A stretch of DNA of 64,000 bases from Candidatus Caenarcanales bacterium (GTDB taxonomy: Bacteria; Cyanobacteriota; Vampirovibrionia; Caenarcaniphilales; Caenarcanaceae). The DNA lies in assembly GCA_030065015.1 (NCBI GenBank), contig JASJDU010000001.1:13814-77813 (forward strand). The letters are read 5' to 3'. Within the stretch, counting starts at the first letter, position 1. Each line of letters begins with the position of its first letter. The position numbers and the translations under genes are program-made. The notes beneath the pieces are model-generated. The model did not search any database, was not told where the DNA came from, and saw nothing but the letters and a program-made list of their open reading frames with translations. This document shows positions 54,702-58,932 of this stretch, in pieces.

Positions 54702-56024
54702 TTGATGATGAAAACTCAAAAAAACTATGTAATGTTTTTTTTCTTAGCATTCTTTGTCTCTTCATTGATCGTCGGACAAAGTGAAGCCTCGATTTACGAT
54801 AACCCAAAAGCGGTTGAAGCTTTATCAAAATGCTTAAAAGAAACTAATGCAACAATGTACGGCGCACAGAAATGTGGTCATTGTAATCATAATAAAGAAT
54901 ACTTCGGTCCATACTTTCGGAATATTCGTTTTGTTGACTGTCGGGCAAGCAGAGCCGCGAAACAAGAATGTAAAGTAGAAAAAGTTGGCCAGTTCCCAAA
55001 GTGGAAGTTTGGAAATGGAAATTATGCTGTTAGGCCACACAGCATTGAGGAAATAGCCTCTGCAGCAGGTTGTAACGATTATGTTGCTAATGCATTAGGT
55101 ACCGCCTCTTATCAGATCGCAGATTCTAATTTCTCCGAACAAAAAGATACTACTTCACAAAATTCTGTTTCATCTTCTGTTTATGGTTCTAAGGAAGAAC
55201 TTGCAAGATGTTTAAAAAATAAAGGTGTTATTTTCTATGGGTCTCCTAGATGTAGCCATTGTGATAAGCAGAAAGCAATGTTTGATGGTGCTTTCGAAAA
55301 ACACTTAAATGGAAATTTTCATAACTGTAAGGGAAGCCCAAAAGATGAAGCTTTTTGTTTTTCAAAGAGAACGTTTCCATTTCCAACTTGGATTCAACCA
55401 TCCAATGGCAAGAGGCTACCAGGGCCAGAAAAAAGTTTAGACTTAATCGCAAGTACTTTCTCTTGTACCTTGGCTGATAGAAGTGTTGGTTCACAAAAAG
55501 AGATTTCCAGAGCTTCTAATAAAGTAGTGAATTCCAATGTTTCTACAAATACCGAGAAACAGAATTCATTGGATAACTCATTTTCATCAGAGGAGTTGGG
55601 GAAAACTGAAAATGTCGACATACTCAACAAATCATCAAATGATCCGATTTTAAACAGCGAACAGACAAGACCATCTTCTATGGTTGCTTCTTCTGTTGCA
55701 CCATCTTTCCTTGATAGAGAAAAAGCTCTTCTTGAGCAAAAACAGGAAAAACTTGCTTCATGCTTAGTTGATAAAAATATTACGTTGTATGGAGTTATTG
55801 ATCAGACAAAAGGAAAACCCATTCAATACAAAGCTACAAAGCAACAGCTAAACGAGCTAGGCGATGCTGCTGAAAAAATAAAAATTGTTGATTGCTCTCA
55901 AAATCAGGCTGAATGTTCTGGAATATTGGTTTACCCTACTTGGATATTTGATGGTAAAAACGAGCTTGCTGGAGTTTATGAACTCAATAACTTAGCTCAA
56001 ATCCTCGGTTGTCCGATTGAATAA
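54702..56024 (+). CDS. Secreted protein built from three tandem thioredoxin-like modules of the VKOR-associated type (two with CxHC, one degenerate).
   Basis: Signal peptide. Module 1 'MYGAQKCGHCNHNKEYFG..FVDC..C..FPKW'. Module 2 'FYGSPRCSHCDKQKAMFDG..C..C..FPTW'. Module 3 'LYGVIDQTKG..VDC..C..YPTW' lacks CxxC. Confidence 0.55.
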   Translation: MMMKTQKNYVMFFFLAFFVSSLIVGQSEASIYDNPKAVEALSKCLKETNATMYGAQKCGHCNHNKEYFGPYFRNIRFVDCRASRAAKQECKVEKVGQFPKWKFGNGNYAVRPHSIEEIASAAGCNDYVANALGTASYQIADSNFSEQKDTTSQNSVSSSVYGSKEELARCLKNKGVIFYGSPRCSHCDKQKAMFDGAFEKHLNGNFHNCKGSPKDEAFCFSKRTFPFPTWIQPSNGKRLPGPEKSLDLIASTFSCTLADRSVGSQKEISRASNKVVNSNVSTNTEKQNSLDNSFSSEELGKTENVDILNKSSNDPILNSEQTRPSSMVASSVAPSFLDREKALLEQKQEKLASCLVDKNITLYGVIDQTKGKPIQYKATKQQLNELGDAAEKIKIVDCSQNQAECSGILVYPTWIFDGKNELAGVYELNNLAQILGCPIE

Positions 56025-56064
56025 GTTTATTTCTGGTATAAACATTTTTCACAATTCACCTCAT

Positions 56065-56093
56065 AAAAAAAGGCCTTAAAAAAGGCCTTTTTT
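56065..56093. terminator. Bidirectional rho-independent terminator between the convergent Trx-like gene and fusA.
   Basis: AAAAAAAGGCC-TTAAAAAA-GGCCTTTTTT: a palindromic stem flanked by A-run and T-run. It can terminate in both orientations. Confidence 0.6.
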
Positions 56094-56128
56094 AGTTTTA
56101 GATTTGTTTATCTTCAAAATTGGCTCAT

Positions 56129-58195
56129 TTATTTAGCAACACTAGCAGCTAAGCTAGACGGAAGCTCTTGATAATTAGCGAACTCCATGCTGAATGTTCC
56201 TTGTCCTTGAGTACGGTTACGAATATCAGTTGCATAACCAAACATCTCCGAAAGAGGCACTTTTGCTTTCACTTTAGAAATAGTATCCTCGGTTTCCATT
56301 CCTTCTACTTGACCGCGTCTACTCGATATATCACCAATTACATCACCCATGAATTTTTCAGGGACTTCAACCTCAACAGCAAACACAGGCTCTAAAATTA
56401 CAGGTGCAGCTTTCTTAAAACCTTCTTTGAATGCTTGAGAACCAGCAATGTGAAAAGCCATCTCACTTGAGTCAACTTCGTGAAAACTTCCATCGAATAG
56501 AGTAACTTTTACATCTATAACTTCATGACCCGAAATAACACCACCAGCCATAGCTTCTTTAATACCTTTTTCTACAGCTGGAATATATTCTTTTGGAATA
56601 ACACCACCAACTATTTTATTTACAAACTCAAATCCCTTTCCTCTTTCTAAAGGTTCCAGTTCTAACCATACATGGCCATATTGTCCTTTACCTCCAGTTT
56701 GCCTTACATACTTACCTTCAATTTGAGTCTTATTTTTCACAGTTTCCCTATAAGCTACTTGAGGTTTTCCAACTCCTGCATCAACTTTAAATTCTCTCAA
56801 CAACCTATCAACAATAATTTCAAGGTGTAATTCACCCATTCCAGAAATAATTGTTTGTCCAGTTTCGTGATCAACATATACTTTAAAGGTAGGATCTTCT
56901 TCCGCTAATTTCCCTAAAGCAGTTGATAACTTATCTTGGTCAGCTTTTGTTTTAGGTTCAATTGCAACAGAAATAACTGGTTCTGGAAAGTGAATTGATT
57001 CAAGAATAATCTGCGCTTTTTCATCACAAAGAGTATCACCAGTGAATGTATCTTTGAGTCCAACTGCAGCACATATATCACCGGCATATACTTCTTTAAC
57101 TTCTGTTCTTTGATCCGACTGTAACCTAACTAAGCGACTTATTCTTTCTTTCTTGCCTTTACTTGCATTATAAATATAGCTTCCTGACTCCAATTTACCC
57201 GAATAGACACGAAGAAAAGTTAAACGACCAACAAACGGATCGGTCATTACCTTAAATGCTAAAGCAGCAAATGGCTCATTATCATCCGGTCTACGTTCTG
57301 CTTCCGTTCCATCACTGAGAGTACCTTTAATGCTTGGAACTTCTGGTGGTGAAGGAAGATAATCAATAATCGCATCCAATAAAGGCTGAACACCTTTATT
57401 TTTAAAAGCTGAACCACAGAGCATTGGGACAATTTGAAGTTTACAGACTGCTTTTCTCAGGGCAACTTTCAATTCTTCCGTGCTTACTTCTTCTCCACCT
57501 AGATATTTTTCAGCTAACGCATCGTCAGTTTCCACGATTGCCTCAATCAAACTAGCTCTATATTCTTCGGCTTTTTCTTTCATATCTGCAGGAATTTCTG
57601 TTTCCTGGGTATTTTTCCCTAGTGGATCATCTTCAGCATAAATAATTGCTTTATTATCGATTAGGTCAATTATTCCTTTTAGTTGATCTTCAGCACCAAT
57701 TGGCAGTTGAATTGGATGGACATTAGCTCTTAATTGATCTTTGACCTGTTTATATACTTTGTAAAAGTTTGCACCAGTTCGGTCCATCTTATTTACAAAA
57801 ATAACTCTTGGGACTTTGTAACGATTAGCCTGATTCCAAACGGTTTTTGTTTGTGGTTGAACTCCTCCGACAGAACATAGAACTATTACAACACCGTCTA
57901 ACACTCTCATTGAGCGTTCAACTTCAATTGTAAAATCAACGTGACCGGGAGTATCAATCAGGTTAATTTGCTTACCTTTCCAATGGCTAGTTATTGCTGC
58001 CGCTGTGATTGTGATACCGCGTTCTTTTTCTTGTGCCATCCAATCGGTTACAGAGGAACCGTCGTGCACTTCACCCATTTTATGAATCAAACCTGAGTAA
58101 AATAAAATACGCTCAGTTGTAGTAGTCTTTCCTGCATCTATATGAGCAGCAATTCCCATATTACGGATTTCTGATAGTGGAAGTTCTCTAGGCAT
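56129..58195 (-). CDS. fusA: Elongation factor G.
   Basis: '[15 protein letters not shown]', '[11 protein letters not shown]', 'NKMDR', domain IV/V signatures. 688 aa. Not linked to rpsL/rpsG/tuf here. Confidence 0.95.
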
Positions 58196-58410
58196 AATGT
58201 TTAACTTTCTATTTCCTTTTAGTTAAAAAAAATGTATTTATCAAAATTTACAGCTATATAGTCTATCAAGTTTTCCTCACTTGAGTCTCGGTGATTCTTT
58301 CATTAGTCTTTTGACTAAAATTAGACATAACTATTTTAGTTTATTCTTCGTAAAAGCTTAATATTTGAATGGGTCGGAGAATCTCAACCTGAGTCAAATT
58401 CAATAATTAG

Positions 58411-58932
58411 CTAAAACTCACAATTTGTTAATTTAGATAGAGTGGGCAAATCTTTAACACCTTCTTTCTTTATACCTAACTGATTTCCTAAATACCAAGT
58501 TGGATAGGATTTGATTCCTCTAAAAGGACAAGTAAATTTGGATTTATTACAATCAACATATTTAATTTTTTCAAAATCTTCTCCAAAGTAAGCTTTTTGA
58601 ACCTTGCAGGCATCACAATCTTCAATAGAAAATAAAGTAACTCCCTTTTCATTCAGGCATTCAACAAGCTTCTTTCTTCTTCTGTTAATATCTGCTTTAA
58701 GTTCTTCCATTAATATTTCTTCTTTAACTTTTTTTTGTTCTAAAGCTTTCAACCTTGATTCTCTGGTTTCAAACTCAATTGCAGAAACTGGTCTCTTCTC
58801 TTCATCTTTGGCTTCTGTTTTCCAATCACTTGTTATTACATCCAAAGCAGGCGAAGAAGAATTAACCAACAAAATTAAAACTATGGATACAAGTAATAAA
58901 ATATTTCTTTTTTGTTGGGCAAAGTAATTCAT
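58411..58932 (-). CDS. Secreted single-module VKOR-type thioredoxin-like protein with a charged coiled-coil linker.
   Basis: Signal peptide. 'LFSIEDCDACKVQKAYFGEDFEKIKYVDCNKSKFTC..SYPTW' is the same module as in 54702-56024. Confidence 0.5.
   Translation of the reverse strand: MNYFAQQKRNILLLVSIVLILLVNSSSPALDVITSDWKTEAKDEEKRPVSAIEFETRESRLKALEQKKVKEEILMEELKADINRRRKKLVECLNEKGVTLFSIEDCDACKVQKAYFGEDFEKIKYVDCNKSKFTCPFRGIKSYPTWYLGNQLGIKKEGVKDLPTLSKLTNCEF

Follow-up and report, generated by a model that had tools for sequence, protein, structure and literature searches.

Two predicted exported proteins built from a VKOR-type module

The window analysed here is a stretch of 64,000 nucleotides from Candidatus Caenarcanales bacterium (assembly GCA_030065015.1, contig JASJDU010000001.1, positions 13,814 to 77,813), with a G+C content of about 35%. 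It contains two open reading frames (ORFs), ORF A and ORF B, built from a module of about 90 residues with the thioredoxin (Trx) fold, the one that forms the DsbA-like domain of cyanobacterial and plant homologs of vitamin K epoxide reductase (VKOR). For all four modules the best or equal-best relative in the PDB is 3KP8, the Trx-like domain of the Synechococcus VKOR homolog. An original prediction, made from the sequence alone, had called both ORFs, with three modules in ORF A and one in ORF B, and the ORF list and alignment bear this out. A hidden Markov model (HMM) made from the modules picked out ORF A and ORF B as the only module-bearing genes in the window. Their parts are listed below, with the confidence of AlphaFold2 models given as the predicted local distance difference test score (pLDDT).

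54702-56024 (+): ORF A, three-module thioredoxin-like protein, predicted secreted; 440 residues from a TTG start (ORF list)
54702-54788 (+): signal peptide of ORF A, residues 1-29, read from the sequence; predicted cleavage after S-E-A, before residue 30
54807-55076 (+): module 1, residues 36-125 (phmmer to 3KP8; pLDDT >90)
54873-54884 (+): module 1 active site, C58-G-H-C61; additional cysteines C44, C80, C90 and C124
~55077-55184 (+): linker 1; predicted disorder at residues 135-154
55185-55469 (+): module 2, residues 162-256 (phmmer to 3KP8; cysteine conservation)
55251-55262 (+): module 2 active site, C184-S-H-C187; additional cysteines C170, C209, C219 and C255
55470-55736 (+): linker 2, Ser/Asn/Gln-rich; predicted disorder at residues 265-334
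55737-56015 (+): module 3, residues 346-438 (profile match to 3KP8); no CxxC
58411-58932 (-): ORF B, single-module protein, predicted secreted or membrane-anchored; 173 residues (ORF list)
58645-58782 (-): long charged helix of ORF B, residues 51-96, K/E-rich (AlphaFold2, block-mean pLDDT ~75-86)
58414-58677 (-): module of ORF B, residues 86-173 (phmmer to 3KP8)
58606-58617 (-): active site of ORF B, C106-D-A-C109; additional cysteines C92, C128, C135 and C171

The NCBI protein QNJ31_00340, from a metagenome-assembled genome labelled Candidatus Caenarcaniphilales, is identical to ORF A except that it has 438 residues, its ATG start at 54708 lying two codons inside the TTG ORF. The N-terminus is predicted to be a typical Sec signal peptide, whose Lys-rich n-region, hydrophobic core and AxA site are all kept in orthologs. 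This same hydrophobic segment aligns by phmmer to the fifth transmembrane helix (TM5) of the Synechococcus VKOR homolog (3KP9). The AlphaFold2 model of ORF A, based on 17 orthologs, shows three Trx-like folds, each with pLDDT above 90; within the linkers, residues 135-154 and 265-334 fall below 50.

ORF B, identical to NCBI protein QNJ31_00350 (encoded, like QNJ31_00340, on a 156-kb contig), was modelled as an N-terminal hydrophobic helix (residues 3-25), a disordered segment (26-50) and the long helix, which continues into the first helix of the module. The order of secondary structure elements in this module is the same as in those of ORF A, at lower model confidence. A short motif, 'I.SDW...P.SA', is conserved near the N-terminus of ORF B.

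Family identity of the modules

The original prediction had staked its case on alignment of the modules with the VKOR-associated Trx domain, and 3KP8 indeed comes out on top both by sequence and by fold. Against all PDB sequences, phmmer gave 3KP8 as the best match for module 1 (E = 9.5e-10), module 2 (E = 3e-5) and ORF B (E = 2.3e-6). For module 3, a profile of 18 sequences matched 3KP8 at E = 1.7e-5, level with human TXNDC5 at 1.6e-5. Foldseek placed 3KP8 first for the model of ORF A (E = 5.5e-5, target TM-score 0.74), followed by full-length VKOR entries and then by yeast PDI (E = 2.9e-3) and QSOX1. The 3KP8-type signature, YG..C.xC..QK..FG...V(D/E)C...C...(Y/F)P(T/x)W, is present; module 3 keeps all of it except the CxxC.

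ORF A and ORF B are members of this domain family, but they are not VKOR fusions: Pfam detected in neither of them the VKOR four-helix domain, which in the fusions is attached by way of a fifth transmembrane helix. For the module itself, nothing in Pfam or NCBIfam scores above its cutoff. Glutaredoxin (PF00462) matched ORF A at E = 0.11 and 13.2 bits, against a cutoff of 22.9, and TIGR02196 reached 20 bits against 88.6. The glutaredoxin label that JGI gives to some orthologs is ruled against by these scores and by the export signals. Pfam Thioredoxin matched neither ORF, so that homology to PDI a or b domains, as judged by PF00085 and Thioredoxin_6, is not indicated, and pdi_dom (TIGR01126) gave family members only 17-25 bits against a cutoff of 107. 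DSBA (PF01323) and Thioredoxin_4 were also without a match; the modules, of about 90 residues, have no inserted helical domain. Finally, there was no Pfam match to Redoxin or AhpC-TSA in ORF A or ORF B, and thus no indication of a CcmG/ResA/TlpA-type protein. What ORF A does have is a PDI-like architecture, with several Trx folds in one predicted exported chain and the motifs CGHC, CSHC and none; this is a matter of resemblance only.

Conserved cysteines and a module without CxxC

Conservation was followed in 17 full-length ORF A orthologs (34-53% BLASTP identity) and in six of ORF B. None of the 16 cysteines of mature ORF A varies, nor do the His of CxHC (H60 included) and the cis-Pro loop in modules 1 and 2. 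The six-cysteine set of ORF B is invariant as well; the dipeptide within its CxxC is variable (DA, EG, AA or PA). The cysteine pattern on which the original prediction relied is therefore conserved in both families of orthologs.

Every module carries two further cysteine pairs, an inner one ('VDC...C') and an outer one, made up of a cysteine in the first helix ('xCL') and one near the C-terminus ('GC'). The shared motif had been described correctly as far as it went, but the outer pair had been overlooked in every module. VKOR fusions have the inner pair too, and it is similar to the 'VDC..C..YPT' segment found in a domains of the PDI family. From invariance alone, we infer two putative structural disulfides per module.

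The third module had been noted to have lost its CxxC, and it lacks the motif in 17/17 orthologs. Four deeper three-module relatives share the same pattern of CxHC, CxHC and none. At the position of the CxxC, module 3 has an 8-residue insertion ('TKGKPIQY' in the window copy); C354, C398, C405 and C437 are retained, together with the YPTW (cis-Pro) loop. Mean pairwise identity among orthologs was 61% for module 1, 71% for module 2 (the highest) and 61% for module 3, compared to 16-21% for the linkers, which also vary in length. This difference is evidence of purifying selection on module 3 and, as judged from the aligned sequences, the loss of its CxxC is real, not decay. Its conservation fits a non-catalytic role, which may be the binding of substrate or partner. 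Identity between the modules of ORF A is only 24-34%, indicating an old triplication.

Breadth of the module family

A census was taken by querying 1.84 billion cluster representatives with the profile of ORF A orthologs. It found 3230 representatives at E<=1e-3, of which 1366 also pass E<=1e-10. Among the best 146 representatives, 120 are single-module proteins without VKOR, with a median length of 138 residues and a lipobox-like N-terminus in 24 of the 120. Another 23 have two to five modules, including the four deeper relatives of ORF A and a Vitrella brassicaformis protein (P0045/P0177) in which VKOR is followed by three modules; the latter is also one of the 4 VKOR fusions. It had been remarked that the modules occur here free of VKOR. 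This is true, but it is the common state of the family and no oddity. Motifs of the CxHC type dominate among the 184 modules in these 146 representatives (CPHC 64, CSHC 35, CGHC 22).

Named members come from Patescibacteria (Uhrbacteria, Paceibacterota) and go under the labels 'thioredoxin domain-containing', 'protein disulfide isomerase family protein' or 'glutaredoxin'. Annotation is inconsistent across the family, with members called glutaredoxin, thioredoxin, PDI or arsenate reductase-like.

Within the genome collection, the three-module protein of ORF A type was found only in metagenome-assembled genomes (MAGs) of Caenarcaniphilales and Melainabacteria, one of the MAGs being labelled Synechococcales. 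Four other proteins (P0031, P0032, P0039 and P0057), which look eukaryotic (algal), have four or five modules each, with CxxC-bearing modules alternating with CxxC-less ones. Multi-module proteins with CxxC-less modules are found in other bacteria too, and such forms in other lineages indicate that the arrangement arose more than once. The multi-module architecture had been put forward as little described. That holds to the extent that we found no curated model and no specific paper on free-standing or tandem VKOR-type Trx modules, but multi-module and dead-module forms recur elsewhere, as above. Our literature search likewise found no specific paper on disulfide formation or oxidative folding in Melainabacteria.

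Proposed function and search for redox partners

ORF A and ORF B are probably exported periplasmic thiol-disulfide oxidoreductases of a PDI-like or DsbA-like kind, as far as sequence and models can tell. ORF A would be a small PDI-like catalyst with its modules on flexible tethers. Modules 1 and 2, with CxHC, would exchange disulfides with exported, cysteine-containing proteins of the envelope. Module 3, which keeps the fold, the cis-Pro loop and the presumed structural disulfides, could bind substrate or partner without catalysis, like the b-type domains of PDI. ORF B would present a single catalytic module, with its variable and His-less CxxC, held near the membrane on the long helix. A partner whose gene lies elsewhere in the genome would have to re-oxidise the active sites or hold them in the reduced state. 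In an oxidase role, this could be a quinone reductase, either VKOR or DsbB, with small-molecule oxidants as another option; for an isomerase or reductase, it might be a CcdA or DsbD protein.

For ORF A we favour the oxidase or isomerase reading because its CxHC motifs are invariant. A His in the CxxC dipeptide, as in the CPHC of DsbA and the CGHC of PDI, accompanies oxidising redox potentials. A role in the folding of envelope proteins is hinted at by two family members, P0018 (569 residues) and P0095 (341 residues), which are membrane-anchored prolyl isomerases of PrsA/SurA type carrying a C-terminal module with all six cysteines. In bacterial VKOR homologs the Trx-like domain is active in the manner of DsbA, and PsbO is oxidised in vitro by the corresponding domain of LTO1 (PMC3842002). 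In E. coli, a fusion of VKOR with DsbA complements a dsbA dsbB mutant (PMC12453122). Complex I is encoded in six Caenarcaniphilales MAGs (PMC8235220), making a quinone pool plausible in the order.

Several observations weigh against this assignment. To our knowledge, no activity, redox potential or substrate has been reported for any free-standing member of the family. The comparison of module 3 to a PDI b domain would be one of analogy, module 3 being a degenerate copy of the catalytic module and not a homolog of b or b'. The AlphaFold2 model of ORF B is modest, with a mean pLDDT of 67. No VKOR, DsbB or CcdA/DsbD gene was found in the 64-kb window, where the proteins with multiple transmembrane helices belong to other families, nor within ~10 kb of ORF A and ORF B orthologs in other genomes. 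This search used a four-domain VKOR HMM, and CcdA sequences by phmmer, on ORFs from all six frames of the window and 16 loci; Pfam was also run on every window protein with >=2 predicted transmembrane helices, and DsbB was covered only by the Pfam scans of the window and, for the loci, by precomputed Pfam columns. Another ~10 kb of contig added beyond the window had no redox gene. A five-domain VKOR profile gave 47 matches from the 8000 word-sharing candidates that alone were scored; most were relatives of the cyanobacterial query, and none was labelled Melainabacteria. Two stand-alone VKOR genes were sampled, and these adjoin classical DsbA genes rather than free modules. By contrast, all three of the distant loci recovered with free-standing modules adjoin CcdA/DsbD-type genes, which belong to a reducing pathway. 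The CxxC of VKOR-fused modules is itself not uniform: it is CPHC in 16 of 22, but CPAC and CPYC occur too, which weakens any reading of the direction of electron flow from the dipeptide.

One element of the original prediction gained no support from these searches, namely a role in place of DsbA/DsbB; no VKOR, DsbB or CcdA partner came to light, and it is CcdA-type genes that distant free modules adjoin. A further possibility here is suggested by some DsbA proteins that are re-oxidised by small-molecule oxidants, with no membrane partner (PMC12453122).

The three distant loci bring forward the opposite direction of electron flow, in which a CcdA/DsbD-type protein encoded elsewhere keeps the modules reduced, so that they reduce or reshuffle disulfides as DsbC, DsbG, CcmG, ResA and HCF164 do. 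In a Coleofasciculus contig (L016, 2121-5152) and in one labelled Sericytochromatia (L015, 5322-8426), three tandem one-module lipoprotein genes are followed immediately by a CcdA/DsbD_TM gene. The motifs of the three lipoproteins are, in order, CPYC or CGYC, CPYC or CAYC, and CLAC or CVAC. The Sericytochromatia label may be a binning error, since the two contigs have this gene order in common and their CcdA proteins are very similar. The third locus, in a Candidatus Nanoarchaeia MAG (L014, 9307-11083), has three abutting genes, one for a rhodanese-like protein, one for a single module (CKFC) that looks like a lipoprotein, and one for a DsbD_2-like membrane protein with 'NPC' and 'LPC' motifs. 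The Coleofasciculus locus thus ties the module to a reducing pathway in cyanobacteria, and the Nanoarchaeia locus ties it to a CcdA-like gene in a DPANN archaeon. The His-less CxxC of ORF B and its orthologs (CDAC, CEGC, CAAC, CPAC) is like that of the third cyanobacterial lipoprotein. We nonetheless think a reductive or isomerase pathway of this kind unlikely for the proteins in the window. The surroundings of ORF A and ORF B lack CcdA/DsbD, as described above, and modules 1 and 2 have invariant CxHC where the CcdA-adjacent modules have CxYC, CxAC or CKFC. HMM scores separate the two kinds as well, at 85-100 bits for free modules of CxHC type and VKOR-fused modules and 52-58 bits for CcdA-adjacent ones, which puts the modules of ORF A far nearer to the former.

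Gene neighbourhood

The surroundings of ORF A and ORF B include the following features.

52675-54594 (+): porin gene with SLH and OprB-type domains, immediately upstream of ORF A (orthologs: L001, L002)
54622-54647 (+): terminator-like hairpin after the porin gene, parting it from ORF A (terminator scan and sequence)
56066-56093 (+): terminator-like hairpin between the convergent ORF A and fusA (terminator scan and sequence)
56129-58195 (-): fusA, between ORF A and ORF B, convergent with ORF A

From these two hairpins, ORF A appears to be transcribed alone in the window. The order mnmE, ComEA-like gene, SLH-OprB porin, ORF A is found in the window and in two other genomes; the adjacency of porin and ORF A is missing in a further one (L004). 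The mature part of the porin has three conserved cysteines ('DPCSNE' and 'DECGN...CG[NQ]P'), making it a possible substrate of ORF A.

A second candidate emerged from the other genomes. In 8/8 of those examined, the gene that comes immediately after the ORF A ortholog, in the same orientation, encodes a small protein of 88-94 residues that is predicted to be secreted (L001 11752-12018, L002 11478-11762, L004 11521-11793; also in L007-L011). It has five invariant cysteines, including a CxxC of its own, in the consensus 'LFEDKCNPTPKC..PEC[FY]xCAPN...CA...PYNY...Y[DN]W..SP'. No Pfam, NCBIfam or PDB relative of it was found, and tblastn found no homolog in the window. One of these neighbourhoods is in a MAG labelled 'Synechococcales cyanobacterium' (L008, JAAFJH010000023.1), which has a full three-module ortholog at 49% identity along with the small gene, just like the Caenarcaniphilales MAGs; the label is probably a labelling or binning error.

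Such neighbours raise the idea that ORF A is a dedicated maturation factor, specific to the small five-cysteine protein or to the SLH-OprB porin, and that it perhaps forms a short disulfide relay with the small protein. The constant position of the small gene and the recurring porin order speak for it. We give this a low probability. The small gene is absent from the window, so ORF A has been retained without that neighbour, at least at this locus, where it is apparently monocistronic between two terminators; the porin link fails in L004; and gene neighbourhood does not tell a substrate from a partner. It is highly improbable that the proteins are non-catalytic, cysteine-rich constituents of the envelope, with structural or binding modules whose CxxC are metal ligands or structural disulfides: the CxxC has been lost from one of three modules that is nonetheless conserved, and several dead modules occur in many family members (P0031, P0032, P0039), but in modules 1 and 2 none of the 17 orthologs departs from the CxHC, His included, or from the cis-Pro loop, and the nearest characterised relatives are catalysts (PMC3842002, PMC12453122).

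ORF A and ORF B were originally presented as bracketing fusA. The gene does lie between them, but neither adjoins fusA in other genomes, and we regard the position as incidental and without functional meaning. ORF B has no conserved neighbours across genomes, and a distance of ~600 kb separates the orthologs of ORF A and ORF B on a single contig of GCA_033762475.1.

fusA stands alone, ~48 kb from a ribosomal-protein cluster (3133-7785, +; recognised by eye from N-terminal sequences), and the window shows no str operon in which it is joined by rpsL, rpsG and tufA. Elsewhere in the window, 45138-50363 (-) encodes a protein of 1741 residues that has a two-partner secretion (TPS) domain at its N-terminus and a pretoxin-HINT domain, and ends in an Ntox44 toxin domain. 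By its domains it looks like a polymorphic toxin of contact-dependent inhibition (CDI) type; an adjoining TpsB or immunity gene is not obvious. At 39996-43537 are four adjacent ORFs (230, 231, 192 and 464 residues) with no cysteines and no Pfam match, the first two having similar Ser/Asn/Thr-rich N-termini. A 90-residue ORF at 2718-2990 (-) has 10 cysteines ('CPKC...', 'CLQC') and no Pfam match, and is possibly a zinc-ribbon protein.

Comparison with known systems

The modules have the same fold of about 90 residues as the Trx-like domains of VKOR homologs from Synechococcus (3KP8, 3KP9, 4NV2), Synechocystis (DsbAB) and Arabidopsis (LTO1). They share with these domains the signature 'YGAxWCxHCxxQKxxFG ... 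V(D/E)C ... C ... YPTW ... G ... L..LA'. The Trx-like domain of VKOR homologs faces the periplasm or lumen, as is predicted for the modules of ORF A and ORF B, and in Synechococcus it is tethered by TM5, the helix to which the N-terminal segment of ORF A aligns. Unlike the VKOR homologs, ORF A has three tandem copies, one of them without CxxC, ORF B has a single copy on a long helix, and both are unfused. The outer cysteine pair of ORF A and ORF B is absent from the 22 VKOR fusions found in a cyanobacterium-seeded VKOR search; it is present in a short fusion, P0098.

ORF A is like PDI (a-b-b'-a'), ERp46/TXNDC5, P5 and QSOX1 in having multiple Trx folds and CGHC-type sites with a redox-inactive domain alongside. 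TXNDC5 was matched both by the module 3 profile and by ORF B, through the 'VDC..C..YPT' segment. ORF A differs from PDI in being bacterial and periplasmic, in having modules shorter than PDI a domains, and in that its inactive module is not a b/b' homolog. Its modules are on long disordered linkers, in contrast to the packed U-shape of PDI, and no Ero1-type partner is known for it.

The free-standing proteins of Patescibacteria (the candidate phyla radiation, CPR) and other lineages carry the same module, with all six cysteines, behind an N-terminal signal, anchor or lipobox. To this single-module plan ORF B adds its conserved N-terminal motif and long helix, and ORF A its chain of three modules. 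With DsbA, whose partner is DsbB or VKOR, ORF A and ORF B probably share the role of a periplasmic CxxC protein passing disulfides on to substrates, and the CxHC of ORF A resembles its CPHC. The modules of ORF A and ORF B lack the helical insertion domain of DsbA, and no Pfam DSBA or Thioredoxin_4 match was found in them.

Implications

ORF A and ORF B present a new domain arrangement of a known and structurally solved redox domain, in a poorly studied lineage; they do not represent new chemistry or a new kind of system. Cyanobacteria and chloroplasts use the VKOR-Trx fusion. In Melainabacteria/Vampirovibrionia, the sister group of cyanobacteria that lacks photosynthesis, the VKOR-type module occurs as free, predicted secreted proteins, one of which is PDI-like with a conserved dead module. 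The finding also points to a large family, of 3230 representatives, that lies outside any Pfam or NCBIfam model, and it supplies candidates for partners or substrates in the conserved five-cysteine neighbour and the SLH-OprB porin. It is a long shot that Caenarcaniphilales lack a VKOR-Trx fusion of cyanobacterial type and have an oxidative-folding system of their own, composed of ORF A, the small five-cysteine protein and ORF B. Such a system, if real, would give bacteria a counterpart to the PDI network of eukaryotes, and it would bear on whether the VKOR-Trx fusion originated by the joining of a free module or whether free modules came from the fission of an ancestral fusion.

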